The notes under the pieces: generated by a model | Told to the model about the DNA's origin: nothing | Databases searched by the model: none | What the model saw: only the letters and a program-made list of their open reading frames with translations | Source of the DNA: Candidatus Saccharimonadota bacterium | GTDB taxonomy: Bacteria > Patescibacteriota > Saccharimonadia > Saccharimonadales > UBA4665 | Assembly: GCA_002952755.1 (NCBI GenBank) | Contig: CP025011.1 | Coordinates: forward strand, 1,260,001-1,292,000 | Length of the DNA: 32,000 bases | Direction: 5' to 3' | Program-made: the position numbers and the translations under genes | Part shown: positions 1 through 31,506 of the stretch, piece by piece | Layout of the letters: each line of letters opens with the position of its first letter | How positions within the stretch are numbered: the first letter of the stretch is position 1

Positions 1-3000
1 GAACATTATTCGCTCCACTGTTCTTTTGCACATCCAACAAATCGCCTGTCTGCGTCGACGAGTTGCCTTGTATTTGTAAGGCTATATCGGCGTCGCGACC
101 TGCAGCGACATATACCGATGTTCCGGTTGCGCCCGCCACGAAGTTCGGCGGCGTTGAGCTCTGGCGGTCACCGGTCAAGATTGTCGACCAATATGCGCCC
201 ATCTGTAAATCATTCCCACCGCCCCCTTGCCAATATATATCCCCGCCGCTCGAACCGATACGGAAATTCCCGGAACCGCTCGTATTAGAGAATAGTAACT
301 GCGATACGTGGGCCGCAGTCCCGGGGGTCGAATTATAGATCTCCAGCTGATTATTCACAAGTAATTGGGAAGTTATAATCCCGCTATCTGATGCTGTCGG
401 CGCAACTCCACCGCTCGACCAACCTGCATATACGGCACCAACCTGCCCTGTGCTCGTTGCAGTGCCGCCCTGCAAATATATTGCCCCGCCTGCGTTAGCA
501 CCTGTTCCGGTAGCATTGCCAGCCGTAAGAGTAATGTTACCTCCAGCACTACCGGCCGCTGCATTGCCGCCAGCACCGCCTTGCAATGTAATACCAGCAC
601 CAGCACCGGTTCCAGAGGAAGTACCCCCCGTAATCTGCACTGTACCACCAGAGGTATTGCCCCCGCCAGCTGCGCCCCCAAGCAAGACCACTCCCCCTCC
701 AGCACCACTTGCACCGCCGGTGCCCCCTAGTAGTTCCGCAATACCACCCGCCCCCGTCGTGTTGCCCGTAGCGCCCTGAAGCTCAAGTGTATCACCGGCG
801 GTAGCCGCGGTTGTCTGAGTAGCACCAGTTATGATAATCGGACTTGTATTTGTAGCACCAAATGTAAAACCTGACGAAGTAATCGTATCGGTATTGTACG
901 TGCCTGTTGCGGTGATATTACCCGTGGAACTTACGGCCAAGACAGTTGTGCCGCTTCCATTCAAGAGATCCAGAATATCGCCGGAGCCGCTTGCATTGGC
1001 TTGCAACACCCCCGCTACGCTGCCGCTGGTAGCAGCCTGTACATTAAAGTTAGCCTGCTGTGTGGATAATGCGTTGTTAATAGCGGTACTGCTCACAAAA
1101 GCTGTGAAGACAGCCGATATGGTGTTAGCCTCGCCCGAAGTGTTCTGGTTAGCAGTTGGTTGGTAAGCGGTACCGGCAGTTACATTCGTATTGTATGTAA
1201 CAACATTGGTCTGACCGGTAATCTTATAGGTGAATCCAGAGCTAGCACCAGCTGTAGCCGGTGTACGCTGCACCTGGGCATAGCCTTCAAATAATTCTCC
1301 AGAAATTTGGGGAGTTAGGCTGGAAAATGTCACTGTTGATGAACCCGAAGAGATGCGCGATCCGTTTGTGTCAACACCCCAAGATGTGCCTGCATTGACT
1401 CCGCTCGCCGTATACTCAGTGGCGACGATTTCATTATTATTGCCCAGACCAGATGATGACAGCGTAATAGTCCCTGCTCCCGTACTCGTAACTGTTCCCA
1501 TCCACATCTCCACCCGGTTGACCGTGCCGTCACCCGCCAGAAAGCCCACGCGCGTCCACGTTGTTACGCCACCGCCAGAAATGCTAGTTATTGCATTGCC
1601 ACTCGGTATCTGTGCTGCAACTACGATAAGATTTCCGACGGTTGTTGGACTATCACTCACAGTTGTAACTGTAGTGCCTGAGCCATGATTATCAGTTTCA
1701 TTTACTTCGGTGATGCTTGCATTTGAGTTGGAGCACGAACTGAAAATTAGTTGGGTTGCAGAGCTAGAGCTAGTTTCCAGACACAATCCTGTCGTTGGTG
1801 CGCTCGTCGGCAGTGTCAGTGTATAGCCCGAGGCAGTGCTGTTGGTACTCGCGTTAATTGTTATCGGATTACCGGCAGTCGTGGTGTTAAACAACAAACT
1901 ACCCGCCTGATTGGTATCGGTGCCCAGTACGGCCTGTTTGGAAATCGTATTTACACTAAACACATTATTCGTACCGTCATTAACCGCAAAGGTATTTGCT
2001 GAGGTAGTGCTGGATTTAATAGTATCGGTATTATTCGTAAGTGTTTCTGTAATACCGGCACCCTGGAGCGTAATCTTGGTTCCAGTAGTAGTGTTACCAA
2101 GCGTGACAGTCTGTACCCGATTAGCCGTACCGATAAGGATAGAGCCATTACTTGTTGTGCTCGTACCAACATCCAAGACGATATTACCCGCAGTGCTAGT
2201 CGTACCCGTAGCATTACCCGTGGTGAGTGTTATGTCAGATGAATTCGTCGATCCGGCCGAGGTTGCCGGCGTACCAATAGCAGTGCCACCAAAACCCTGT
2301 AAGCTGAGTATTCCCGCTGCCGTCCCCCAAGTAGCCGCCGCAGCAGACTGAATAGTAAGAGCGCCGGCGGTTGTCGACCAAGTCGAGGCTGCTCCTGCAG
2401 TAATAGTGACGCCATTGCCTTGGATAGTGGTAGTGCCACCAGCTGCTGAGTTTGGTCCTGAACCGATGCTAACGACGGAGTTACCCCCAGCATTATTTGT
2501 ATACCCAATATTAATGGTAGCCGTACCAGAAGTCTGATTAGTACTCCCTATTATGGTAGTAGTGTTGGCATCCTTTGAAGTTTCGATCTGGGTCGTTGTT
2601 CCATTGAATGAGCTACCTGTGCCAAAGCCGCTTTGTGAGTTACCGGTGGAACCGATATTTATGTAGCCATTGAGGGTATCGATATCGAAAAGGGTGTGGT
2701 CGCCACCGCCGGAATGAGCACTACTGTTCTCAACCTGGAAGGCAGTGGTTGAATCGACAGTAGGGTGTTCGAAGTACTGGCCTTGGATGGCAAAGCCAAA
2801 GACGACAGCCCCAGTTTGCGACGTTAGGCTCAGGAAGTTACCGCCACCAAGGCCGTTTGTATCCTGAATATTTATGGCATTGACTGCACTAGTGAGGCTG
2901 ATGGTTGGATTCGTACCGCCAGCTGAAGCATTGTAGGCAGTCTGCAGGCTACACACGGTGGTAGCGGACGAACAGAGGGTGCCGGTTTCGTTGGGGAGAG

Positions 3001-4021
3001 TGAGTGTGTGGCTTCCGGAGCCACTGGTTGCAGCCTGGAGAGTGATAGCATTGGCGTTGGAGGCGTTGTTGAATACGAGCTTACCTGCAAGTGAACTTGC
3101 AGTTCCTAGGACTATTTGGTTGTTAGAGTTGTCAACCGCCAATATATTGTTTGAGCCACTTTGAATCTGAATTGCAGTCGTTGAAGTTGCAGAAGGTTTT
3201 AGCGTTATAGTGCCCCCGCTACCAAAGGCAGCGACGTTCACCCCGGACCCGTTCAGGAGGTCAAGGATATCGCCGCTACCAGTTGCGTTAGCCTCAAGTA
3301 CGCCCGCCACAGTGCCGGTCGTAGCTGCTTGCACGTTAAAATTAGCAGCTTGAGTGGTAGTTTGGTTCCGAATATAGCTATTCGTGCCGCTACCCAAGGC
3401 AAAGCCACACGCGGTGGCCGCCTGATAACAGATGGTCGCAGTAGACGCGCCAGGGTCGGGCAGAGTAATTGTCGCATCCTGCCCAAAGCTGCCAGCGAAC
3501 TGAAGCACACCCGTGTGGGCACCAGCCAGACTTGCGAGTTGCCCCGCTCGAAAAGCATAGGGCACAGCAGTGAGATGTAAGCGCGGCGTCATCTCGCCAT
3601 CCCATGAGGGAGTGCCCGTACCGCCAACATTCATGCCCAGATATAAGTCTTGATTCCAGTCTATTGAAGGAAGGGTGGTCACACTACCTAAGCTCACTGT
3701 AAGATAACCATTAGCCACACGGACAACGTTGCCGCTCGTCCGCGTTTCCACCCACAGACAATTAGCGTCACCAGAGCAACTGCCTTGGGATGAACCTGAC
3801 GAGGATAGTGCATTATAGAGCTTGAATTCGACGTTATAGTTGCCATCAGGCACAATACTGCCTGACGCGTTCATGAGTCGTGCCTGAAAGTTAATAGTGC
3901 TATTGGTGGCAGCACTCGCATGGTTACTAAAATAGTTTGTGAGCCAGCTTGTAGAGAGAACTAAAGAAATACAGAGCACAGCACGCAATGAGCGCCAGGG
4001 CAATTTTACAGATAATGACAT
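1..4021 (-). CDS. Very large secreted Thr/Gly/Ser/Asn/Ala-rich modular repeat protein (putative cell-surface fibre/adhesin). The 5' end is complete; the 3' end runs off the left window edge (>1340 codons). It is absent from the supplied ORF track.
   Basis: I read every plus-strand triplet starting at 2,5,8...4019 and none is tta/cta/tca, so the minus strand has no stop in this frame. ATG is at 4021-4019 (alternative GTG at 4033-4031), and an in-frame TAG lies upstream at 4069-4067. The N-terminus MSLSVKLPWRSLRAVLCISLVLSTSWLTNYFSNHASA/ATN has a Sec-signal layout: basic n-region, hydrophobic core, AxA site. Every minus ORF listed in the track for 1..4021 is in one of the other two frames. The same conserved motif recurs in this frame 2292 nt (764 codons) apart. 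The ORF caller probably skipped it because no stop codon lies inside the window. Confidence 0.85.
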   Translation of the reverse strand, partial: MSLSVKLPWRSLRAVLCISLVLSTSWLTNYFSNHASAATNSTINFQARLMNASGSIVPDGNYNVEFKLYNALSSSGSSQGSCSGDANCLWVETRTSGNVVRVANGYLTVSLGSVTTLPSIDWNQDLYLGMNVGGTGTPSWDGEMTPRLHLTAVPYAFRAGQLASLAGAHTGVLQFAGSFGQDATITLPDPGASTATICYQAATACGFALGSGTNSYIRNQTTTQAANFNVQAATTGTVAGVLEANATGSGDILDLLNGSGVNVAAFGSGGTITLKPSATSTTAIQIQSGSNNILAVDNSNNQIVLGTASSLAGKLVFNNASNANAITLQAATSGSGSHTLTLPNETGTLCSSATTVCSLQTAYNASAGGTNPTISLTSAVNAINIQDTNGLGGGNFLSLTSQTGAVVFGFAIQGQYFEHPTVDSTTAFQVENSSAHSGGGDHTLFDIDTLNGYINIGSTGNSQSGFGTGSSFNGTTTQIETSKDANTTTIIGSTNQTSGTATINIGYTNNAGGNSVVSIGSGPNSAAGGTTTIQGNGVTITAGAASTWSTTAGALTIQSAAAATWGTAAGILSLQGFGGTAIGTPATSAGSTNSSDITLTTGNATGTTSTAGNIVLDVGTSTTSNGSILIGTANRVQTVTLGNTTTGTKITLQGAGITETLTNNTDTIKSSTTSANTFAVNDGTNNVFSVNTISKQAVLGTDTNQAGSLLFNTTTAGNPITINASTNSTASGYTLTLPTSAPTTGLCLETSSSSATQLIFSSCSNSNASITEVNETDNHGSGTTVTTVSDSPTTVGNLIVVAAQIPSGNAITSISGGGVTTWTRVGFLAGDGTVNRVEMWMGTVTSTGAGTITLSSSGLGNNNEIVATEYTASGVNAGTSWGVDTNGSRISSGSSTVTFSSLTPQISGELFEGYAQVQRTPATAGASSGFTYKITGQTNVVTYNTNVTAGTAYQPTANQNTSGEANTISAVFTAFVSSTAINNALSTQQANFNVQAATSGSVAGVLQANASGSGDILDLLNGSGTTVLAVSSTGNITATGTYNTDTITSSGFTFGATNTSPIIITGATQTTAATAGDTLELQGATGNTTGAGGIAELLGGTGGASGAGGGVVLLGGAAGGGNTSGGTVQITGGTSSGTGAGAGITLQGGAGGNAAAGSAGGNITLTAGNATGTGANAGGAIYLQGGTATSTGQVGAVYAGWSSGGVAPTASDSGIITSQLLVNNQLEIYNSTPGTAAHVSQLLFSNTSGSGNFRIGSSGGDIYWQGGGGNDLQMGAYWSTILTGDRQSSTPPNFVAGATGTSVYVAAGRDADIALQIQGNSSTQTGDLLDVQKNSGANNV

Positions 4022-4202
4022 TTTGGTATGCACGGTACTTTTGTTTGGTTTATTTTTATTTCTCGTCTACTGAAGTAGAGTGTGGAGTACTCTATTAGTA
4101 TCCTCCTAACGAGTGCGTACGAACAAGATACAAAACAGAGATAATTAGAAGCCTTCTCCTGACCGAATAACTGCTTTATTAAAAGAAACATATGTTGTAT
4201 AT

Positions 4203-4211
4203 ATTATAACA
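4203..4211 (-). promoter_or_regulatory. Candidate extended -10 promoter (TGtTATAAT) for the giant surface-protein gene
   Basis: The minus strand reads gatTGTTATAATatat. There is no good -35. This would give a leader of about 175 nt. Confidence 0.3.
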
Positions 4212-4283
4212 ATCACGAGGGTCATCTGTTTACGGTTGTAAAAATACTAATTCTATTGCATCTAGGCTGCGGCTAGTTGATGT

Positions 4284-4317
4284 AAAAAAAACCAGCGACG
4301 CATAGATGGTCGCTGGT
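4284..4317 (-). terminator. Rho-independent terminator after rplU
   Basis: A 9-bp stem, accagcgac (4291-4299) / gtcgctggt (4309-4317), with a 9-nt loop. On the minus strand it is followed by a run of 7 T (plus A-run 4284-4290), 23 nt after the rplU stop. Confidence 0.75.
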
Positions 4318-4340
4318 TTATCCACAGCTGGAACAAAGAA

Positions 4341-8235: not shown

Positions 8236-11025
8236 TTAACTGCAGCCAGTGGTTGAACCACAGCTCGTACAGACGTAGCAGCTACCCGCTCGCTGGGTTT
8301 GATTACCGCAGCTATAGCAGAGCGGCGCATGGGTGTCGGTCTGCACATCGGCCTTCTTTGGCGGAAGTGGTGCCTGATCAGTTTCGCTACTCATTACTGG
8401 TCGCTGGCCGCCCCCCTCAATCAGATGACTATCGGCAGATTGATCATCAGTAAGCAGGCTAGTCTGTTCTTCAGGCATATCGTCCAATGAGGCAAGTCCC
8501 AACTCCAACCGATCATCAAAGCTTAAGTAATCAAGAGCAAGACGCCGAGCTATATAATCAGTGATAGAGCTAGTAGTGCGGACCTCCAGGTCATCGGTAA
8601 TTCCGGACGGTGCAAAGCTGGTGCTCATCATTGCACGCACAAAACTCTTGAGCGGCACCCCGTACTGCAACCCATGACTCACCGATATGGCAAACGAATC
8701 CATGAGTCCAGATATGGTAGAACCTTGCTTGGCAACGCTCACGAATAGTTCACAAGGTGCGCCATCCTCGTACTCACCTACGGTAAAGAAGCCTTTTAGG
8801 TCGGCAACGCGGAATTTATACGTCTGGCTTTTACGCCGACGTGGAGGCAAACGACGTACAGCCCCTTTTACCACTATTCTATCGTTCAGCTTTTCAACCG
8901 ATGCAGCTGGCGATTCCTGGGCAGGCAGCGCGTCCTTCTTCTCAGCGTTCTTGTCGGTTGAAGACAGGGGCTGAGCAACCTTACAGTTGTCGCGGTAAAT
9001 TGCCACCGCCTTGATGCCCATCTTCCATGCATCGATATGTAGTTGCTCAACATCTTCAACCGTAACTTGTTCGGGCATGTTAACTGTCTTGCTAATGGCG
9101 CCGGAAATAAACGGTTGGACCGCCGACATCATCTTTACATGGCCAAGGTAGTGAATAGCATTATCGCCAACCGCACACGCGAATACGTCTCTATGCTCAG
9201 CCTTAAGATGAGGGGCCCCTGTAATACTGCTATTGTCGTGGATATGGGCAACAATGTCATCAATTTGCGGCTGCGTATATCCCAGCGCACGTAAGGCACG
9301 GGGCACCGTCTGATTCACAATAACCATACTGCCGCCACCGACCATATCCTTGTACTTAACCAGAGCAAAGTCGGGTTCGATCCCTGTCGTGTCACAACCC
9401 ATCATAAAGCCAATGGTGCCAGTTGGGGCCAATACGCTCGCTTGGGAGTTGCGTACTCCGTAGAGTTCGCCCAGTTCCACCGCTTCATCCCATGCTGATG
9501 TGGCGGCGCTCAATAACTCCTCCGAAATGAGACTGGCGTCAATATTGGAGACTTCTGCACGATGCATGCGCAACACCTTCAGCATGGCCTCACGGTCCTT
9601 ACGATACCCGGCGAACGGACCAACACGGCGAGCCATCTTAGCGCTCGTAGTATAGGCATGTCCAGTCATCAGTGCAGTAATGCCAGCCGCAATGGCTCGT
9701 CCTTCGTTCGAGTCGTAAGGCAGTCCCATAGCCATTAATAGAGCGCCTAAATTAGCGTAGCCCAGGCCAAGCTCACGGTATGCTTTCGCATTCTTGGTGA
9801 TTGACTCTGTAGGATAGGCGCTATAGCCGACAAGAATCTCCTGGGCAGTAAATACTAGTTCAACGGTATGTTTAAAAGCCTCGACATCAAAACGCACGTC
9901 ATCCCAGAACTTCAACAAGTTGATACTCGCCAGATTGCAGGCTGAGTTGTCGAGGTGCATATACTCGCTACAGGGATTACTTGCGTTTATACGACCAGCA
10001 TTCGGGGCTGTGTGCCATTTATTAATAGTTGTATCGAATTGCATACCCGGATCGGCACATTCCCAAGCAGCCTCGGCAATCTGACGGAAGATATGGCGAG
10101 CTTTGACCGTTTTGACTGTTTTACCGGTAGTAACTGCTTTGATGTCCCAATCGGCGTCATCAAGGACGGCTTGCATGAACTCATCAGTAACCCGGACTGA
10201 ATTATTGGCGTTCTGGTATTGAATGGAAAAAATGTCTTTGCCGTCGAGCGACATATCAAAACCAGCCTCTTGGAGCACTCGCGCCTTGCGTTCCTCGACT
10301 GCTTTGGCCCAAATAAACTCTTCTACATCAGGATGGTCGCCATTTAAGATAACCATTTTTGCGGCCCGACGTGTCTTACCGCCGCTTTTTATCGCCCCTG
10401 CAGACGCATCAGCACCCCGCATAAAGCTTAAAGGTCCAGAAGCGGTGCCGGCACTCTTGCCTAGCGGCTCTACCGAAGAACGAATAGAGCTTAAATTGAC
10501 CCCCGAACCGGATCCGCCCTTAAAAATCATGCCTTCTTCGCGGTACCAGTTTAGAATCGACTCCATCGTATCCTCGATACCCAAGATGAAGCATGCGCTG
10601 GCTTGTTGTGAACGTGCCGGTGCGCCAATATTAAACCAGACAGGCGAATTAAATGCTGCGCGCTGGGTGGCTAAGACGAACTTTAACTCTTCACGAAAAT
10701 CTTCGGCTTCTTCATCATTATCGAAATAACCCTCCTGCAACCCTTGCCTGGTAACCGTGTCAACAACACGATCTATAAGCTCTTTTAAGGAACTCTCACG
10801 CTCATTGGTGCCAGGAGTGCCTGTAAAGTACTTTTGGGCAACAATGTTAATAGAGTTTAAGGACCAACCCTCAGGAAATTCGACATCTTTCTGCTGAAAT
10901 ACCGGATTACCCGTCATCGGATTTTTCAGGAGTGACTCCTGTTTTGTCCATTTCAGTTGATCGTATGCCTTACTTTTTGGCGGGGTGAATAACCGCCCAA
11001 CCGTTACGCTGTTGGTTTGTCCCAT
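8236..11025 (-). CDS. nrdJ: Adenosylcobalamin-dependent ribonucleoside-diphosphate reductase (class II RNR)
   Basis: Long RNR alpha-type ORF with the active-site block NPCSEYMHLDNSACNLASINL, GGSGSGVNLS, and a C-terminal Cys-rich tail CYSCGNQTQRAGSCYVCTSCGSTTGCS typical of NrdJ-type enzymes. The start is probably the ATG at 11025 (GAGGG upstream); the track starts at the GTG at 11037. Confidence 0.88.
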   Translation of the reverse strand: MGQTNSVTVGRLFTPPKSKAYDQLKWTKQESLLKNPMTGNPVFQQKDVEFPEGWSLNSINIVAQKYFTGTPGTNERESSLKELIDRVVDTVTRQGLQEGYFDNDEEAEDFREELKFVLATQRAAFNSPVWFNIGAPARSQQASACFILGIEDTMESILNWYREEGMIFKGGSGSGVNLSSIRSSVEPLGKSAGTASGPLSFMRGADASAGAIKSGGKTRRAAKMVILNGDHPDVEEFIWAKAVEERKARVLQEAGFDMSLDGKDIFSIQYQNANNSVRVTDEFMQAVLDDADWDIKAVTTGKTVKTVKARHIFRQIAEAAWECADPGMQFDTTINKWHTAPNAGRINASNPCSEYMHLDNSACNLASINLLKFWDDVRFDVEAFKHTVELVFTAQEILVGYSAYPTESITKNAKAYRELGLGYANLGALLMAMGLPYDSNEGRAIAAGITALMTGHAYTTSAKMARRVGPFAGYRKDREAMLKVLRMHRAEVSNIDASLISEELLSAATSAWDEAVELGELYGVRNSQASVLAPTGTIGFMMGCDTTGIEPDFALVKYKDMVGGGSMVIVNQTVPRALRALGYTQPQIDDIVAHIHDNSSITGAPHLKAEHRDVFACAVGDNAIHYLGHVKMMSAVQPFISGAISKTVNMPEQVTVEDVEQLHIDAWKMGIKAVAIYRDNCKVAQPLSSTDKNAEKKDALPAQESPAASVEKLNDRIVVKGAVRRLPPRRRKSQTYKFRVADLKGFFTVGEYEDGAPCELFVSVAKQGSTISGLMDSFAISVSHGLQYGVPLKSFVRAMMSTSFAPSGITDDLEVRTTSSITDYIARRLALDYLSFDDRLELGLASLDDMPEEQTSLLTDDQSADSHLIEGGGQRPVMSSETDQAPLPPKKADVQTDTHAPLCYSCGNQTQRAGSCYVCTSCGSTTGCS

Positions 11026-11246
11026 AAGTACCCTCACTTTTTACACATAAGACGTCTCTCGTTATCTTATGCACTTACTTTATTGTTTTTAATTATTTGT
11101 TAGAGCCCAGAAAGCGAAACAATCTCTCAAAGTATCGCCAGCTCCCCCTTGAGCCTTGGTAGGCCCTATTTCCTTGTTATACCCCACCCTCTCCCAAAGG
11201 CACAAGTACAAGTTAGTGCAAAGGGGAACCGACGATCAAGACTTCT

Positions 11247-11717
11247 TTAAGAGGTCGTTGCCGTCTTTCGCTCTCTGATCTGCGAAAGCGCACGTTCGAA
11301 CCCTGCTATATCGGTAAAACGCCGATACACACTCGCAAAACGAACGTAGGCCACCTCATTCATGATCGCCAAACGCTCCATTATCATTTCACCTAAACGC
11401 GTTGTTGCCACCTCTGGTTCTCCGCAGCTGTATAGATTCTGCTCAATGTCGGCTACGAGCGCCTCAAGTTGAAGATTGGTTACAGGCGTCTTCTCGCACG
11501 CTCTGTATAGCCCCGCCAGCAACTTTTCCCGATTAAATAACTCTCTATTGCCATCATTCTTAATTACTATAAGCTGAGGACGCTCTACACGTTCATAGGT
11601 CGTAAAACGATAACCGCAATCAGGGCATGATCGACGACGTCGGATTGCCTGACCCTCGCTGGCGTCACGGGATTCGATCACTTTTGTATCATCACATCCG
11701 CATTGACTACATTTCAT
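11247..11717 (-). CDS. nrdR: Transcriptional repressor NrdR (zinc ribbon + ATP-cone)
   Basis: MKCSQCGCDDTKVIESR...CPDCGYRFTTYERVE zinc ribbon followed by an ATP-cone-like region. Size 156 aa. Confidence 0.92.
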   Translation of the reverse strand: MKCSQCGCDDTKVIESRDASEGQAIRRRRSCPDCGYRFTTYERVERPQLIVIKNDGNRELFNREKLLAGLYRACEKTPVTNLQLEALVADIEQNLYSCGEPEVATTRLGEMIMERLAIMNEVAYVRFASVYRRFTDIAGFERALSQIRERKTATTS

Positions 11718-11754
11718 GCGTACCCCCGTCTTTCTTTTGTTTTGAATGTACGAT

Positions 11755-11809
11755 CACTACATATAGTGCTTGTGGTTTAAATCATAGCTCTATTTATAGC
11801 GCCATGCAA
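11755..11809 (-). promoter_or_regulatory. nrdR-nrdJ promoter with two NrdR boxes
   Basis: Minus strand: -35 TTGCAT (11809-11804), 17 nt spacer, -10 TATGAT (11786-11781). Box 1 is CACTATATGTAGTG (11768-11755), just downstream of the -10. Box 2 is CGCTATAAATAGAG (11801-11788), inside the spacer. Both resemble the NrdR-box palindrome CACTATATATAGTG. Their centres are 33 bp apart. Confidence 0.65.
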
Positions 11810-11831
11810 CTATTTAAGGTTGTATTATTTA

Positions 11832-13157
11832 TTACGAAATACGCGTATTATCACCTTCGGGGTGATCATCATGCTCTTTATACCGTTTTGTGAGACGTCT
11901 TAGGAAGGATGGCTTCTCCAGTTCGGGGTCAGAATCTGCTGTGTCATCACTACTGTGAGTTGATGGGACCGCTGAAGGGGTAGCGTTTACTTCTGGGCTA
12001 GTATCGCTATCATCTAGCGTCCAAATGTTGGGCATGCCCGAATCAGGAGCTTTAAAATCCGTCGCCGCATCTTGCTGCTCATCAAGTGAGGTATCGATCT
12101 TCGAAAAATCATCATCAACTTTCGGCGATATAGGGGTAGGAGTCGGGGGGGCAACGGAAACAGAAGCGGCACCTCCGGCATCAGCGCGGCGATTCGTAAA
12201 ATATGAGGCGTCAAAGCCCGTGGCAACAACCGTTATAATTACCTCACCGTCGAGATCGGGACTAATCGTAGCACCAAATATGATGTTGGCATCAGCATCA
12301 GCAGCATTCGTAATGGTCTCTGCAGCCATATTAATCTCATGCATGGACAAATCATTACCACCGATGACATTAAAGAGAATGCCGCGAGCTCCATCAATGG
12401 ACACTTCGAGTAGTGGCGATTCAATCGCCTGCTGAGCAGCCTGCACTGCTCGATTCTCGCCACTTGCCCGACCAATACCCATGAGCGCCGAACCGGCGTT
12501 GCTCATAACCGCCTTTACATCGGCAAAGTCGAGATTAATCAGACCATGCACGGTAATAAGATCAGAAATCCCCTGCACTCCTTGCCTTAGCACGTCATCG
12601 GCGACTTTAAATGCCTCAAGCAGCGGCGTCTGACGGTCAATAGTCTGCAGCAAGCGGTCATTAGGAATAATAATAAGCGTATCGACACTCTTGCGTAAAT
12701 TCTCTATTGCCAGTTCCGCGTTTTTGCGACGCTTTTCGCCCTCAAAAGCGAAGGGCTTTGTAGCAAACCCAACCACTAAAATATTCATTTCTTTTGCTGC
12801 ACGAGCAACTACGTGGCCAGCACCGCTGCCTGTACCACCTCCCGCACCAATAGTGACAAAGATCATATCGGCGCCTTCAAGAGCCTTCTTAATCTCGTCG
12901 ATGGATTCTTCGGCTGCCTTTTGGCCAACCAAAGGATCGGCACCTGCACCTAAGCCCCTGGTCTCGTCTTTGCCAATATGAATCTTAACAGGGGCATTCG
13001 AATGATGGAGCGCCTGCGCATCGGTATTGATGATTATGAACTCTACACCCTCGACACCTGCATCCATCATACGCTGCACTGCGGCGCCCCCAGCGCCGCC
13101 GACGCCTATGACTTTAATGCGTGCGAATGTTTCTATAGCTGGTGCAACTTGAGGCAT
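11832..13157 (-). CDS. ftsZ: Cell division protein FtsZ
   Basis: Tubulin signature [25 protein letters not shown], and a disordered C-terminal linker. GGAGAGGG RBS upstream. Confidence 0.95.
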
Positions 13158-13192
13158 GAGCGACCCTCTCCAATCTTCACGTTATATGGTGC

Positions 13193-13221
13193 AGTATAGC
13201 CTAGCTACTCACTCAGTTCAA
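13193..13221 (-). promoter_or_regulatory. Candidate ftsZ promoter in the ftsA-ftsZ spacer
   Basis: Minus strand: TTGAAC (13221-13216), 17 nt spacer, TATACT (13198-13193). Confidence 0.4.
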
Positions 13222-13269
13222 CAAATTTGAACGGCCAGAATGGTACCCACTCTTAATGTATTCAAAAAA

Positions 13270-14505
13270 TCAGCGTCGAAAACGACGCAACAAACTATCG
13301 ACAAAATGTAGTGTTCGATCCGCGGCACCACTAGTATGCGTAGCGGTAACCTCGGGTAACAGTAGCATATCTAAGAGCATCAAACCAACTGCTGTACAGT
13401 ATGCAGGATCGCCCACAGTATCCACAAGGCCGCTCATAGGTTGCAGCTTACCGACACGCACAGCCAGTTGAAGCTGCTGCTTCGCAAAATCTGCAACACC
13501 GGGCAACTTGGCAGTTCCTCCGACAAGTATGACACCACCCGGCAATTTATGAGCTTTATGGATATGTGCCAGTTCTTTGTCGACATATTCGAACAACTCT
13601 TCGACGCGCGCCTCGGTAATCATAGCTATGTCTTCAGCTTTAAAGAAATAATCCTGGCTATGCATTTTGATTCTCACGTCGCGCTTCGCCACATTTGAAG
13701 ATAAGGTTGCAAATTGAACTTTTACAGCTTCAGCTACATCCAAATCAGTTCTTAGCCCAATCGCCAGATCGTTGGTGATATGCTGTCCGCCTATGGGGAG
13801 CACAGCCACATGTTGCACTTCGCCATCCTCGAGCACTACAAGATTCGTGGTACCGGCGCCAATATCAATAAGAGCAGTACCGGCTTCTTTTTGCTGGCGC
13901 TGTAATACGGCCTCTGAGGCAGCTAGGCTTGATAATGTACGGTTATGAACCGACACTTCGGCCTTTTCTAAAGCCATGTCCAAGTTACGTAAATTTGGAG
14001 TGGCAGCGGTTACAATATGCGTGTCTACTTCAAGACGAACGCCGTGCATGCCGACCGGGTCCTTAATGTTCTCTTGGCCATCAAGCCGATAGTTTTGTGC
14101 AAAAACTTGGATTATCTCTCTATTGGAGGGTAACTGTACAATGGCTGCAGCCTCTTCAACCCTTAAGCGATCGTCAGCAGTAATCTCCCGATTGGCAGAA
14201 CTAATAGCAATGACCCCCTTAGAGTTAAGTCCACTTACATGCGTACCGTTTATATTCACGGTTGCGCCTTGTATGCGGACCCCTGAGATGCGTTCAGCTT
14301 CAGTGACGGCGTGCGCTATGGCGTCAGCTGCGTCCTCGATATGTACCACGGCGCCCTTTCGCATGCCCATGTTGGGAGCGCTACCATGGCCGATTATTGA
14401 TAATTTACCGGGATTATTTGGATCGAGTATACCAATTACACATCGTACCGTGTTGGTGCCGATGTCAAGGCCGACATATGGTGTAGAAACGGATGACCCG
14501 TGCAT
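13270..14505 (-). CDS. ftsA: Cell division protein FtsA (actin-like ATPase)
   Basis: VGLDIGTNTVRCVIG phosphate-1 motif, IDIGAGTT, GGTAKLPG. 411 aa, directly upstream of ftsZ. Confidence 0.9.
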   Translation of the reverse strand: MHGSSVSTPYVGLDIGTNTVRCVIGILDPNNPGKLSIIGHGSAPNMGMRKGAVVHIEDAADAIAHAVTEAERISGVRIQGATVNINGTHVSGLNSKGVIAISSANREITADDRLRVEEAAAIVQLPSNREIIQVFAQNYRLDGQENIKDPVGMHGVRLEVDTHIVTAATPNLRNLDMALEKAEVSVHNRTLSSLAASEAVLQRQQKEAGTALIDIGAGTTNLVVLEDGEVQHVAVLPIGGQHITNDLAIGLRTDLDVAEAVKVQFATLSSNVAKRDVRIKMHSQDYFFKAEDIAMITEARVEELFEYVDKELAHIHKAHKLPGGVILVGGTAKLPGVADFAKQQLQLAVRVGKLQPMSGLVDTVGDPAYCTAVGLMLLDMLLLPEVTATHTSGAADRTLHFVDSLLRRFRR

Positions 14506-14551
14506 ATATGCACGCAGTATAGCGCTTACCCTTGGCCTAGAGCAAGCTTTC

Positions 14552-15307
14552 TTACACCTTGGTCAAGATTTCACACCCTGTTTTTGTGATAAGAAGCGTA
14601 TGTTCAAACTGTGCAGCGTAGGAACCGTCAACCGTAGAAAGCGTCCAGCCATCTCGACCTTCAAAGATTGCGGGACTACCCAGTGTAGCGATTGGCTCAA
14701 CGGCTATGGTCATACCAGCTTTCAGCACAGGACCCCGCCCTGCCCGCCCATAATTCGGTATCTCAGGGTCCTCGTGCAGCTGATGCCCCACACCATGGCC
14801 AACAAGTTCTCTTACAATCCCCAGACGGTATCTACGTAGCGTATGCTCAACTGTGGCAGATATGTCGCCTACATGACAGCCATGTTTGATAACTTTTATA
14901 GCTTCGAGCAGCGCCTGTTCGGTTCCTTTAAGAAGTCGGGCTGTATCAGTAGTTGTTTTATTGTCAACACAAACTGTGATACCACCGTCGGTAATCATCC
15001 CCTTATAACGGACTCCAAAGTCAAAATTGACAACGTCGCCAGCCTTAAAGGTGTACCCGTTAGGGATAGCATGCTGGACTTGATCGTTTACTGATATGCA
15101 AATAATGTCTGGGTATCCATAAAAACCCAGGAAAGCAGGTTCACCGCCTAGCCGTTCAAGTTCTTCATGGGCCAATATGGACATAGCCTTAGGCGTTAGC
15201 CCTGGCTTGCACCGTTCTCGCATAAGCTGCAAAACTGAGGCAAGCATCTTTCCGCTCTCACGCAATGCAGCAACCTCTTCGTCAGTCTTAATACGTATCA
15301 TATCCAA
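14552..15307 (-). CDS. map: Type I methionine aminopeptidase
   Basis: 251 aa with metal-ligand blocks (FDFG...D, HGVGHQLHEDP, EPIAT, FEHT). Confidence 0.92.
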   Translation of the reverse strand: MDMIRIKTDEEVAALRESGKMLASVLQLMRERCKPGLTPKAMSILAHEELERLGGEPAFLGFYGYPDIICISVNDQVQHAIPNGYTFKAGDVVNFDFGVRYKGMITDGGITVCVDNKTTTDTARLLKGTEQALLEAIKVIKHGCHVGDISATVEHTLRRYRLGIVRELVGHGVGHQLHEDPEIPNYGRAGRGPVLKAGMTIAVEPIATLGSPAIFEGRDGWTLSTVDGSYAAQFEHTLLITKTGCEILTKV

Positions 15308-19489: not shown

Positions 19490-20390
19490 TGGCCCCGTTG
19501 CAGCCAAGAGCCTGGAGTTGCTGGCACAACATTTTGTATTCGAGGCGATTATAACAAAACCCCGGGCGGCGCACCATACCGGAGACGTACCTGTTATAGC
19601 AGTCGCAGAACAACTTGGAGCTCCTTTACTCTTTGCCTCAACCAAACAGGAGCTTGATGACGTGTTCTACGATTATAAGCCTAGGAGCAAGGTTGCGATA
19701 TTAATCGACTTCGGTATTATTGTATCTCAAACAATCATCAACCGTTTTGCACTAGGTATTATTAATAGTCATTTTTCAATCCTGCCGGAATGGCGTGGCG
19801 CCGATCCTATTACCTTTGCTATTTTAAGCGGACAAAAACAAACTGGTGTCAGTCTCATGCTTCTCGTACCTGCTATGGACGAAGGGCCACTTATCGCCTA
19901 CGACACTTACGACCTACCGAAGACCATTACTGCGCCCGAGCTCACTACCAACCTCATCTATTTAAGCCACAAACTACTTACAAAAGAGCTGCCAAAATAC
20001 CTGGCCGGAAGTCGTGGAGTCACCCCACAAGAGGAGATGACCAATCGACAAGTATCGTACTCGCGAAAGCTAACCAAGGAAGATGGTATTTTAGACTGGA
20101 GTAAGCCAGCAGACCAGCTGGAACGGGAGATTCGCGCCTTCATTGAGTGGCCAAAGAGCCGCTTCCAGCTTGGAGATTCTTCGGCTATCGTCACTCAGTC
20201 GCATGTTTTAGACGAACAAGGGCACCCAGGGAGACGTACCATAATAGATAGACAACCAGCCATATACTGTAGAGAAAAAACGCTGGTGCTCGATAAAATA
20301 AAACCGGCCGGGAAGAAAGAAATGACCGGCCAAGCATTCCTGGCCGGCTATAAAAATATCTTCTTAGGCGCTCAAGCGGCTAGGTCGTAA
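19452..20390 (+). CDS. fmt: Methionyl-tRNA formyltransferase
   Basis: FFGSG N-terminus and the NSHFSILPEWRGADPI motif. def-fmt synteny, with a 38-nt overlap with def. Confidence 0.9.
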   Translation: MKNALEPIIFFGSGPVAAKSLELLAQHFVFEAIITKPRAAHHTGDVPVIAVAEQLGAPLLFASTKQELDDVFYDYKPRSKVAILIDFGIIVSQTIINRFALGIINSHFSILPEWRGADPITFAILSGQKQTGVSLMLLVPAMDEGPLIAYDTYDLPKTITAPELTTNLIYLSHKLLTKELPKYLAGSRGVTPQEEMTNRQVSYSRKLTKEDGILDWSKPADQLEREIRAFIEWPKSRFQLGDSSAIVTQSHVLDEQGHPGRRTIIDRQPAIYCREKTLVLDKIKPAGKKEMTGQAFLAGYKNIFLGAQAARS

Positions 20391-20863
20391 TCGCCTTGCT
20401 GTCGCGTTTCTTGTGATGGCATATGAGGCGGCAGAGGCTGTTGCGGTGGGTATGGCGGGTATGCTTGTGGCACAGGAGCTGCCCCCGGAGAAGTGTAGGG
20501 CTGGGAATTTGATGCAGGCATGGCTGGCATCTGCTGAGATTGCGCTGCTGCCTGCTGACTGGAAGCTAGTATCTGGGGTGCTACCTGGCTTATTTCCATC
20601 TTAAGGTTTTCGAATTCAGCCGCGACGACATCTTTATAGTTTGGGAAGTTTGTTTCGAGCCACTGCAGTGCGCCCGCCTCGTCATTCCTTTCTATAAACT
20701 GCTCGAACTCGCTTAGCTGGGCGTCCGTCATCTGTTCAGCTAACTTCATCCCAACTCGCATTTCCAACGTTTCATAGATATGGGCGAGGAGCTTTTTCTT
20801 TTCCTCAGGAGGCAGCCCGGCGAGGCCGAGTTCGCGGAGTAAGTCGTCATCAAGTTTAATCAT
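20372..20863 (-). CDS. Hypothetical protein: helical N-domain (DUF5663-like, from memory) plus a Pro/Gln-rich low-complexity C-terminal tail
   Basis: MIKLDDDLLRELGLAGLPPEEKKKLLAHIYETLEMRVG... followed by ...QQAAAQSQQMPAMPASNSQPYTSPGAAPVPQAYPPYPPQQPLPPHMPSQ. Confidence 0.6.
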   Translation of the reverse strand: MIKLDDDLLRELGLAGLPPEEKKKLLAHIYETLEMRVGMKLAEQMTDAQLSEFEQFIERNDEAGALQWLETNFPNYKDVVAAEFENLKMEISQVAPQILASSQQAAAQSQQMPAMPASNSQPYTSPGAAPVPQAYPPYPPQQPLPPHMPSQETRQQGDYDLAA

Positions 20864-23937: not shown

Positions 23938-24759
23938 ATGTACCTGGGGATTGACATTGGAGGCACCAAAACGCTGGTAGCTAGTTTGAGCAATGACGGT
24001 GTCATTCAGGAAAAAGTCCGCTTTGCAACGCCTCAAGATTACAGCGTATTCTTAGTGCTTTTGGAAAAATATGTAGATGATCTTACAATAAATGATCTCA
24101 TCGCGTGCGGAGTTGCCGTGCCCGGCAAACTTGACCGTGCACACGGCATCGGACTCGCTATGGGCAATTTACCCTGGAAGGATGTACCAATAGCAGAAGA
24201 CGTGAAACATATTGTCGAGTGCCCTACTGTTGTCGAGAATGATGCCAACCTAGCTGGACTCTCCGAGGCGATGCTTCTAAAAGATCGTTATAATCGTGTC
24301 CTATACGTCACTATCAGTACTGGTATTGGCACAGGGGTTATCGTCAACCAGGAGATTGCACCCGGCTTTATCGACTCCGAAGGTGGACAAGTTATGGTTG
24401 AAAGCGCCGGCCGACTACTGCCTTGGGAAAAATTAATATCTGGCCAAGCCATAGTGAAACGCTTTGGCAAACGAGCTCAAGATATTACCGATAGAGAAAC
24501 GTGGAGCATCATTGCGCACGATATCGGACTAGGGCTCATAGACCTTATTGCCATGATGCAACCACAGATTATCGTGTTGGGAGGCGGCGTAGACACATAT
24601 TTCGATCGTTTTTCCGGCTTCTTGGCAAAAGATTTAAAACGGTATGAGACACCTATCGTCGCTATTCCGCCAATTATAGCCGCCGCACGTCCTGACGATG
24701 CAGTTGTATACGGGTGCTACGATTTAGCAAAAATGCGCTATGGAAAAATTTATAGCTAG
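23938..24759 (+). CDS. ROK-family sugar kinase (glucokinase-like)
   Basis: MYLGIDIGGTKT ATPase motif and ENDANLAGLSEA. The 146-codon N-terminal extension in the track (from 23500) is antisense to rpsA and is not credible. Confidence 0.8.
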   Translation: MYLGIDIGGTKTLVASLSNDGVIQEKVRFATPQDYSVFLVLLEKYVDDLTINDLIACGVAVPGKLDRAHGIGLAMGNLPWKDVPIAEDVKHIVECPTVVENDANLAGLSEAMLLKDRYNRVLYVTISTGIGTGVIVNQEIAPGFIDSEGGQVMVESAGRLLPWEKLISGQAIVKRFGKRAQDITDRETWSIIAHDIGLGLIDLIAMMQPQIIVLGGGVDTYFDRFSGFLAKDLKRYETPIVAIPPIIAAARPDDAVVYGCYDLAKMRYGKIYS

Positions 24760-25201
24760 GCTAGAACAAAACTATCCGCAATTAACTTTTACAGCCGATG
24801 ACATGAATTATTGGTCACCTACGGAAAAAACCATTTTCTATATTTCAAAAACAGATGAGAGGGCAATGGCCTCAGTATTACACGAGTTATCTCATGCTCT
24901 TCTGGGGCATCAAAATTATGGTAACGATCTTGAGCTATTAAACAAAGAAGTGGCAGCATGGCAGAATGCCCTCGACCTTTCTGCTGAATACGAGATCTCT
25001 ATTAGCAATGAACACATCCAAGACTGCTTAGACACATATCGGGAGTGGCTTCACAGAAGAAGCACATGTCCAACATGTAAAAGCTCGGGTCTACAAATAA
25101 CAGAAAATATCTATACGTGTATTAACTGCCATCAGGAGTGGAAAGTGAGTAGATCACGACTTTACCGTCCCTATAGGCAATGCATAAAGACTGGAACCTG
25201 A
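24740..25201 (+). CDS. Hypothetical HExxH protein with a C-terminal CxxC...CxxC zinc ribbon (putative small metallopeptidase-like or regulatory protein)
   Basis: HELSHALLGH motif and CPTCKSSG...CINCH. It overlaps the ROK kinase 3' end by 20 nt, which suggests translational coupling. Confidence 0.6.
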   Translation: MEKFIARLEQNYPQLTFTADDMNYWSPTEKTIFYISKTDERAMASVLHELSHALLGHQNYGNDLELLNKEVAAWQNALDLSAEYEISISNEHIQDCLDTYREWLHRRSTCPTCKSSGLQITENIYTCINCHQEWKVSRSRLYRPYRQCIKTGT

Positions 25202-25717: not shown

Positions 25718-25723
25718 ATATAA

Positions 25724-25837
25724 TTCGGCACCGTGCTATTTTCCCAGGGGTTGACCCCAAGTATTGTAACCGCGGCGAGGCTTAACTGCTGTGTTCGGCA
25801 TGGGAACAGGTGTTTCCCTCGCGCCATGGGCACCGAA
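25724..25837 (-). rRNA. rrf: 5S ribosomal RNA
   Basis: The minus strand reads TTCGGTGCCCATGGCGCGAGGGAAACACCTGTTCCCATGCCGAACACAGCAGTTAAGC...GGTGCCGAA. This includes the universal CCGAACAC..GTTAAGC motif and a terminal helix I pairing. About 114 nt. Confidence 0.92.
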
Positions 25838-26005: not shown

Positions 26006-29195
<3,190 letters not shown>

Positions 29196-29568: not shown

Positions 29569-29645
29569 TGGTGGAGACACGGGGATTCGAACCCCGGACC
29601 CCCTGCTTGCAAAGCAGGTGCTCTAGCCAGCTGAGCTATGTCCCC
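29569..29645 (-). tRNA. tRNA-Ala (anticodon TGC), CCA encoded
   Basis: Minus strand: GGGGACATAGCTCAGCTGGCTAGAGCACCTGCTTTGCAAGCAGGGGGTCCGGGGTTCGAATCCCCGTGTCTCCACCA. It has the G3:U70 identity pair and a full cloverleaf. Confidence 0.95.
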
Positions 29646-29685
29646 TTATGGAGAGAAATCTGGTTGGGATGACAATCAGAAAATA

Positions 29686-29762
29686 TGGTGGGCGATCGGG
29701 GACTTGAACCTCGGACCTCGTCATTATCAGTGACGCGCTCTAACCAGCTGAGCTAATCGCCC
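29686..29762 (-). tRNA. tRNA-Ile (anticodon GAT), CCA encoded
   Basis: Minus strand: GGGCGATTAGCTCAGCTGGTTAGAGCGCGTCACTGATAATGACGAGGTCCGAGGTTCAAGTCCCCGATCGCCCACCA. It forms a cloverleaf with one A-C mismatch in the T stem. Confidence 0.93.

Positions 29763-30030: not shown

Positions 30031-31506
<1,476 letters not shown>

Follow-up and report, generated by a model that had tools for sequence, protein, structure and literature searches.

A giant secreted modular protein encoded beside rplU in Saccharibacteria, a candidate host-contact fibre

We analysed a 32,000-nt stretch of a Candidatus Saccharimonadota genome (GenBank assembly GCA_002952755.1, contig CP025011.1, positions 1,260,001 to 1,292,000; hereafter the window) and found at its left end, on the minus strand and directly downstream of rplU, a real gene for a giant secreted protein. 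We put the chances at about even that the product is a cell-anchored fibre displaying glycan-binding modules for host contact, and as such a candidate host-recognition device. That the protein stays on the surface, its orientation and oligomeric state, and its binding of glycans and contact with the host are elements of this proposal that we infer. Sequence comparison showed homology between the central domain of the protein and phage proteins encoded in the tail-fibre region, which lends new, indirect support to a putative function as host-contact fibre or adhesin.

The giant gene and its product

A preliminary description of the window, made from the sequence alone, had proposed a gene here, and translation, the stops in the other frames and shuffled sequences all bore this out. 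One minus-strand frame of positions 1..4021 contained 1340 codons without a stop, beginning with the ATG at 4021 and reaching the edge of the window, and the remaining five frames contained 31–110 stops each. Given the base composition, the chance of 1340 stop-free codons was 2e-27, and the longest open stretch in 200 shuffles was 213 codons. On reading of the sequence, the ATG at 4021 was the earliest start downstream of an in-frame TAA, and residue 1 was also where the alignments with several homologues began. The gene had been called hidden from the open reading frame (ORF) track. It was indeed absent from that track, but only because the listing leaves out ORFs that run off the source stretch; it is not hidden in a biological sense.

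The missing C-terminus of 272 further amino acids (aa), whose recovery the preliminary description had advised, was obtained and contained no anchor, sorting signal or intramolecular-chaperone domain. The full gene occupies positions 10001-14839 of the surrounding locus (L001) and encodes a protein of 1612 aa; NCBI, JGI and Logan all contain a 100% identical one (P0001), encoded on a contig of 1.45 Mb. An independent Logan assembly yielded the identical protein on translation, which argues against a frameshift or assembly artefact, an error that had been named beforehand as a possible refutation. A compositional accident was ruled out by the stop statistics together with hundreds of homologues.

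The composition of the window part was as previously described, with T, G, S, A and N making up 62% of residues and D, E, K and R 6.3%. The cysteines had been said to occur only in close pairs. This held for four pairs (82/88, 198/205, 350/357 and 747/763) but not for Cys17, which is unpaired and lies within the signal peptide. The term "repeat protein" was found to be loose: a few short protein motifs recur, but no DNA tandem repeats were found. There was no DNA-level repeat between the two connector copies described below either, and recent gene conversion between them was ruled out on that ground.

The predicted architecture consists of conserved blocks (aa ~38-330, ~674-1036 and ~1320-1612 in the homologues) and of variable stretches between them. 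The start codon and a Sec-type signal peptide (aa 1-37, window 3911..4021, minus strand, as are all features of the gene given below) come first, with K6, R10 and R13, a hydrophobic core at 11-22 and A-S-A at 35-37. Cleavage is predicted after A-S-A, leaving the mature N-terminus ATNSTINFQARL. The same layout of basic residues, hydrophobic core and AxA site, directly ahead of the motif INFQ[AG]RL, was kept in ~25 homologues, in agreement with the earlier claim of a secreted protein. A motif scan of all 1612 aa found no lipobox, no LPXTG and no further transmembrane-like or hydrophobic segment.

The N-module follows in two parts. Part 1 (aa 38-148, 3578..3910) was modelled as an Ig/MG-like beta-sandwich with the Cys82/Cys88 pair, at an AlphaFold2 predicted local distance difference test score (pLDDT) of ~90. 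A fold search of PDB with this part returned generic Ig/MG-like beta-sandwiches only (best E 0.08). Its invariant residues include G17, G23, Y25, N26, F29, W53 and E55 in mature-chain numbering. Part 2 (aa 149-215, 3377..3577) contains the segment WDGEMxPRLxLTAVPYAF and the first "ITLP...C...C" junction (Cys198/205); it was conserved in ~100 of 119 homologues and had low pLDDT as a monomer. The preliminary description had likened the start of this module to the N-termini of tail-fibre-like or collagen-like secreted proteins, a link that none of the libraries searched verified.

A connector (copy 1, aa 226-270, 3212..3346), ANFNVQAAT...GDILDLLNGSG, leads from the N-module region into a variable stalk (aa 271-734, 1820..3211) of T/S/G/N-rich, poorly conserved beta-strand segments. 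Inside this stalk lies the second junction, LTLPNETGTLC...C (aa 340-357, 2951-3004, Cys350/357). The third junction (aa 735-763, 1733..1819), LTLPTSAPTTGLCLETSSSSATQLIFSSC with Cys747/763, stands directly before a central globular all-beta domain; at this junction, the residues Y64, L66, L68, P69, G76 and C78 ... C94 were invariant in alignment A3. The central domain (aa ~769-975, 1097..1717) was modelled as a jelly-roll or ConA-like sandwich at pLDDT 90-95 and is the part held in common with phage proteins. Connector copy 2 (aa 990-1040, 902..1054) ends what we call the junction-domain-connector cassette.

Beyond it, a glycine-rich region (aa 1041-1300, 122..901) comprises ~7 loose units of 16-19 aa of the type GGxG...[IV]x[LI]xGG. 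Within it, aa 1101-1200 are 80% T/G/S/A/N with zero charged residues. The region was neither conserved across homologues nor modelled as a monomer, and is presumed to be a beta-solenoid-like stalk. The conserved C-terminal block begins in the window (aa 1301-1340, 1..121) with a degenerate connector, GDLLDV at aa 1326, and continues outside it (aa 1341-1612, the 272 aa mentioned above). This last part contains a GAMYYN..FRC..W..C hairpin and an all-beta domain (aa ~1470-1612, pLDDT 60-78), and the protein ends in ...TLDGVSVTGM. The C-terminal 272 aa had no Pfam match even at E ≤ 10 and no PDB or viral relatives. The alignment for the second structure model consisted of homologues in which a second cassette abuts the C-terminal domain, which anchored both ends.

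These motifs follow a simple grammar. Junctions of the form "xTLxLP...C...C" (aa 185, 340 and 735) precede non-stalk segments, and "ANFNVQAAT...GDILDL" connectors (aa 226 and 990, with the degenerate copy at 1326) come after them. The cassette (aa 674-1036 of the query) was duplicated in many homologues, with up to six copies in proteins of 4,000-6,150 aa.

The family and its genomic slot

Searches of Pfam, NCBIfam, PHROGs and PDB sequences returned nothing meaningful for the whole protein or its segments, and PDB profile searches with the family alignments A1, A3 and A5 did no better. A total of 607 homologues were found at E ≤ 1e-3, the named ones belonging to Candidatus Saccharibacteria or Saccharimonadales and annotated as "hypothetical" or "beta strand repeat-containing" proteins. 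The N-module pattern occurred at 379 places in species-representative genomes; the synteny counts below rest on 79 listed loci among these. In keeping with the lineage suggested earlier, 77 of the 79 were labelled Saccharibacteria or Patescibacteria. The two oddly labelled loci, L010 (DATLCF010000002.1, "Nevskiaceae") and L014 (CAJCIR010000037.1, "Chlamydiae bacterium"), carry a Saccharibacteria-type ileS-rplU-giant gene arrangement, with L21 at ~70-79% identity, and are probably mis-binned or mislabelled contigs. As judged from these sequence searches, the family is restricted to Saccharibacteria (Saccharimonadia), and its N-module, central domain and C-terminal tip are three uncurated domain families without a Pfam, NCBIfam, PHROG or PDB counterpart. 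Relatives contained Kelch, LVIVD, CBM_4_9, FG-GAP or DUF4082 domains, which are typical ligand-binding modules. The literature searched for Saccharibacteria S-layer, giant surface or tail-fibre-like proteins did not describe the family.

The gene order at the source locus is ftsA-ftsZ-nrdR-RNR-ileS-rplU-[giant gene]-141-aa ORF-parA-parB-signal peptidase I. Annotation of the neighbours confirmed the giant gene as the only non-housekeeping gene in the window, and no phage genes were found in the 32 kb window or in L001. The test of synteny with rplU that the preliminary description had advised gave a strongly positive result: in 61 of the 79 loci, rplU was the gene just upstream and on the strand of the giant gene, and ileS was present in 51. 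The spacer between rplU and the giant gene (window 4022-4340) had a median length of 328 nt over loci L002-L080, mostly 290-350 nt, across deeply diverged genomes. This length was very constant. Little sequence was conserved past the rplU terminator.

That intrinsic terminator (4284..4316, minus strand) has an 8-bp G+C-rich stem, CCAGCGAC/GTCGCTGG, a 9-nt loop and a run of eight T. Its fold had a z of -4.8 against shuffles, and the hairpin and T-run were kept across 28 genomes. The terminator scanner, with a loop limit of 8 nt, missed it, and it was found by reading the sequence. Downstream, a sigma-70-type promoter is predicted at 4203..4232 (minus strand; TAAACA, an 18-nt spacer and TG-TATAAT, an extended -10; 10 of 12 matches with the TG present), which would imply a leader of ~175 nt. 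The extended -10 motif was not conserved at the syntenic loci of other genomes, and the promoter prediction is limited to the source genome. Since the rplU terminator and a predicted promoter of its own precede it, the giant gene would form a separate transcription unit.

A DnaA box that matches the consensus perfectly, TTATCCACA, which reads CTGTGGATAA on the strand of the gene, also lies in the spacer, at window 4318-4326 (plus strand), between the rplU stop and the terminator hairpin. This box was kept in at least 80% of 28 Saccharibacteria genomes. DnaA boxes were not enriched in the window as a whole (nine found, 7.3 expected), and a DnaA-box role of the spacer was set aside on that ground. 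In Southlakia epibionticum the corresponding site abuts parA/parB.

ORFs occupying the rplU slot ranged from 928 aa to more than 2900 aa and carried differing sets of modules. Two tandem family members, each with an N-module but with different downstream content, were observed at or beside the slot in L002, L009, L011, L024, L079 and CAVUMM010000005.1 (L049/L052). In Southlakia epibionticum, a cultivated oral epibiont with the same backbone, parA (SEML1_0183) comes straight after rplU (SEML1_0182) (Wang et al. 2023, Table S1, PMC10633639), and no annotated relatives of the family were found in the Southlakia genome tables. The gene is therefore a presence/absence feature on a conserved backbone and is not universal in the phylum.

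Among syntenic orthologues, the N-module was 50-70% identical, compared with 52-62% for the C-terminal 400 aa of the neighbouring IleRS, whereas residues 216-1612 were mostly 0-20% covered by detectable similarity. On the sequence evidence, this variability is explained by module replacement and not by a diversity-generating retroelement or recent internal DNA repeats. L001 9000-20674 contained no direct repeat of ≥50 nt that could serve as a template/variable pair, and no reverse transcriptase was present among the called genes, which ruled out a variable protein of such a retroelement.

The central domain in phage proteins

Fold searches with the model that contains the central domain gave weak PDB neighbours (best E 0.0098): a GH43 accessory sandwich, the LamG-like domain of PAPP-A, galectins, and jelly rolls of PL7, PL14, PL18 and GH16. 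In terms of the model, these point to a ConA-like fold of the lectin/glucanase type. Matches among predicted viral structures (BFVD) were stronger, with 73 at E ≤ 1e-3 and a best value of 3e-9. Many of these were proteins of 200-250 aa with target TM-scores of 0.6-0.76 over ~220 columns, and those that had names were for the most part minor tail proteins of phages of Mycobacterium and Gordonia. We infer from the models that the phage matches belong to the 207-residue central domain and not to the ~145-residue C-terminal tip, because, with a query of 943 residues, a query-normalised TM-score of 0.20 requires ~189 superposed residues.

A profile of the domain matched 1327 clusters among 1.84e9 representatives. 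It also matched four IMG/VR viral contigs (UViG_3300046408_000009, UViG_3300012359_000231, UViG_3300012207_000103 and UViG_3300044831_000040), with hidden Markov model E-values of 1e-28 to 1e-39. BLASTP of the central domain against the proteins of the viral contigs gave 38% identity over 186 aa with a 954-aa phage protein (E 6e-21) and 37% over 155 aa with another match (E 9e-15). These sequence comparisons show that the central domain has homologues in phage proteins encoded in the tail-fibre region. The contig encoding the 954-aa protein, UViG_3300046408_000009 (L087), is that of a tailed phage. The gene for the 954-aa protein stands there between head genes (head protease and major head protein) and, downstream, a tail-sheath gene. 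All 134 of the 134 cultured phage records that matched its capsid were actinobacteriophages, and the GC content of the four viral contigs was 56-66%, against 48% for the window. Phages of this type probably infect Actinobacteria, to judge from their sequences.

In the 954-aa protein (L087 7959-10823, plus strand) the shared domain is N-terminal and is followed by ~35 tandem repeats of ~20 aa, GxVTxLGVxSPxAxxSxS. The upstream neighbour of its gene encodes a 669-aa protein with a tail-fibre PHROG match and Reg_prop/NHL propeller repeats.

The rest of the giant protein gave a different picture. The N-module and the C-terminal domain had no relatives in 2.9 million viral contigs, and the whole protein had no tblastn match in 50,697 phage records and no PHROG match. 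Ten small representatives consisting of the stand-alone domain had no PHROG match either. Two ENA contigs with a stand-alone central domain (L082 and L083) were high-GC (0.62 and 0.69) and bacterial, without clear phage context. In both, the central domain lies near CBM_4_9 and TIG-domain proteins, and the ilvD and short-chain dehydrogenase genes are fragmented, which suggests frameshift-prone assemblies.

Candidate functions

In the reading that we favour, the protein would be exported by Sec as an extended surface fibre with a mature length of ~1575 aa, possibly oligomeric, built as a chassis with payloads: a conserved N-module handle and swappable modules. The N-module would attach, without a covalent bond, to the envelope of the producing cell itself or to some conserved partner, and surface docking by this module is favoured because it is conserved while the distal parts are replaced. 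Low-charge segments rich in beta-strands would form the stalk, with globular modules set between disulfide-stapled "TLTLP...C...C" junctions and connectors. The payload of the giant protein itself would be the lectin-like jelly-roll domain and the orphan C-terminal beta-sandwich tip. The variable distal modules may bind glycans on the cell surface of the bacterial host, which is probably an actinobacterium, and replacing modules would shift the specificity, as happens in receptor-binding proteins of phages. Recognition of glycans on actinobacterial hosts fits because the payloads are lectin-like or propellers and one of them is common to probable actinophages; the hosts of cultivated Saccharibacteria are Actinobacteria only (PMC11659515).

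Several observations weigh against a host-contact fibre of this kind. No wall-anchor domain or sorting signal was recognised with Pfam, NCBIfam or the motif scan, so surface retention is assumed. Monomer AlphaFold2 models had ~60% of residues at pLDDT <50, with the stalks below ~50-55, and because most residues were modelled at such low values, fibre shape and oligomeric state are tentative. Southlakia epibionticum is a cultivated epibiont without the gene at the rplU site, so an epibiotic way of life does not in general depend on the family. As for the phage connection, the Foldseek output came without query coordinates, and the assignment of matches to the central domain was made by length arithmetic and independent sequence hits. 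There was no sequence link to Tweety gp21 (hhalign probability 1.4%, a Smith-Waterman score below the shuffle mean, no PHROG in common); because sequence methods give no link, the likeness to named actinophage proteins is at the level of fold only. The 954-aa phage protein carries the domain at its N-terminus, and the N-terminal end of tail fibres is usually virion-proximal. The central domain was also found in many proteins from outside Saccharibacteria.

A bolder version of the favoured reading, which we advance tentatively and think less probable than its opposite, is that the protein is a "cellular tail fibre". A lineage-specific chassis in the rplU slot would take receptor-binding cassettes from the actinobacteriophage domain pool, the episymbiont and the phages would have target structures on the actinobacterial envelope in common, and exchange of cassettes would set the episymbiont's host range. 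Phage receptor-binding fibres (actinobacteriophage minor tail proteins such as the Tweety gp21 family, PHROGs 2106, 553, 382 and 13352, and the 954-aa protein of UViG_3300046408_000009) resemble the giant protein in a conserved N-terminal part with replaceable distal modules and in a long, beta-rich, low-charge stalk. They also have in common a beta-sandwich of ~205 aa, at fold level with minor tail proteins and at 37-38% identity with proteins of uncultured phages, and beta-propeller modules occur as alternative payloads in phage and cellular proteins. In contrast to phage fibres, the giant gene has a chromosomal housekeeping context and encodes a Sec signal peptide, and its product has no sequence likeness to cultured phage records, PHROGs or Tweety gp21. 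Moreover, the shared domain is internal in the giant protein but N-terminal in the phage homologue.

Fibrillar adhesins of Gram-positive bacteria (MSCRAMM-type) are likewise large, carry a signal peptide and consist of an elongated stalk in which putative ligand-binding modules are embedded, and form families that are expanded and variable between genomes. Unlike them, the giant protein has no LPXTG/sortase signal and no known stalk or adhesive Pfam domain; its conserved end is the N-terminus, and its binding modules are internal or C-terminal cassettes. Two other adhesin classes were rejected. A trimeric autotransporter adhesin, the JGI name of homologue P0015, was ruled out, as there was no YadA-type barrel and no Pfam match in the C-terminal 272 aa at E ≤ 10. 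A two-partner-secretion exoprotein (FHA/CdiA) was ruled out because there was no two-partner-secretion domain and no Pfam or NCBIfam match in the N-terminal region. Large surface proteins encoded by Candidate Phyla Radiation (CPR) genomes are known in general. From Southlakia epibionticum, the "protein adhesins" SEML1_0891, SEML1_0315 and SEML1_0890 were reported, which are essential and whose domains are VCBS, dockerin and FN3 (Wang et al. 2023, PMC10633639). Like the giant protein in the favoured reading, these are envelope-associated proteins of a Saccharibacterium with domains of glycan-binding type, proposed to target host glycans (PMC10633639), but they differ from the giant protein in domain families, and the rplU slot is empty in Southlakia. 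A modular fibrillar surface protein is thus of a known kind; new are the Saccharibacteria-specific chassis beside rplU, its three uncurated domain families and the domain common to probable actinophage fibre proteins.

Among the alternatives to a host-contact fibre, an S-layer or structural envelope coat comes first, although we consider it rather unlikely. The N-module would then anchor to the wall and the variable remainder would form the exposed lattice. Like monoderm S-layer proteins, the giant protein has Sec export, a low-charge composition rich in T, S, G, A and N with almost no cysteine, and a conserved terminal module with a variable remainder. In the source genome it also has its own strong predicted promoter, with a perfect extended -10 and the ~175 nt leader, and the core-like conservation of the slot in 61 of 79 loci and of the N-module at housekeeping level would suit a coat protein. 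However, no SLH, CWB2 or other S-layer anchor domain was found, and the slot proteins, at 928 to >2900 aa, with unrelated modules, extreme variation in length and tandem paralogues, do not look like one dominant coat protein. Lectin-like and propeller inserts are typical of binding rather than lattice-forming proteins, the gene is absent from the Southlakia slot, and the literature searched contained no report of a Saccharibacteria S-layer protein.

We give still less chance to a fibre-mounted, depolymerase-like enzyme that would degrade glycans and open the host envelope. The fold neighbours of the central domain include alginate lyases of families PL7, PL14 and PL18 as well as a GH16 glucanase, and there were 3Di-level matches to the capsule depolymerase of phage KP34 and to parallel beta-helix proteins. 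Mycosynbacter amalyticus, a Saccharibacterium, was reported to encode arabinogalactan-degrading enzymes (PMC11880426). Nevertheless, no glycoside hydrolase or lyase family matched at any threshold, and a single acidic residue was invariant (E108 in alignment A4), hence no catalytic pair is evidently conserved. The best PDB match was the non-catalytic C-terminal sandwich of a GH43 enzyme, all PDB matches had E ≥ 0.0098, and the depolymerase and beta-helix matches were long alignments through low-confidence regions with root-mean-square deviations of 20-30 angstroms.

About equally improbable is release from the cell as a soluble secreted lectin or effector. An AxA site that fits the cleavage consensus and the lack of any anchor, lipobox, LPXTG or transmembrane segment in the 1612 aa agree with release, but a conserved N-module with freely replaced distal parts fits a docking handle better, and the very long low-complexity stalks fit a spacer projecting from the surface. 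Very unlikely, finally, is a tail fibre (or its remnant) of a prophage or tailocin, or a phage-decoy surface protein. As to the tail fibre, homology of the central domain to tail-fibre-region proteins, its structural likeness to minor tail proteins and the sub-threshold matches that 4 of 35 relatives gave to the gp37 trimerisation region are outweighed by housekeeping neighbours with no phage genes in the window or L001, a Sec signal peptide, a chromosomal slot conserved across deep divergence, an N-module and C-terminal domain absent from the 2.9 million viral contigs and a whole protein without match in the 50,697 phage records, with prophage origin ruled out by genomic context.

The remaining genes of the window are map, adk, yqeY, priA, def, fmt, a gene for a DUF5663 protein (20372-20863, minus strand) between fmt and infB, infB, rpsA and a full rRNA operon. 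The operon comprises 16S rRNA (30034-31506), two tRNAs (29572-29762), 23S rRNA (26008-29191, minus strand) and 5S rRNA (25723-25837). A 153-aa ORF beside the 5S rRNA gene (24740-25201, plus strand) had no Pfam match. The 23S rRNA match was 3184 nt long against a model of 2925 positions, and the ~260 extra nt are possibly an insertion; insertions have been reported for CPR rRNAs.

By what means ultrasmall CPR episymbionts select and keep their bacterial hosts has yet to be settled, and in the literature searched type IV pili were the only characterised factor. The giant-protein family adds a sequence-defined candidate specificity determinant, with a conserved handle and with payloads that differ between species sharing the rplU slot. 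One payload domain also occurs in phages whose hosts are probably Actinobacteria, the group to which the hosts of all cultivated Saccharibacteria belong. Should binding be confirmed, hosts of uncultured Saccharibacteria could be predicted from the modules present in the rplU slot.

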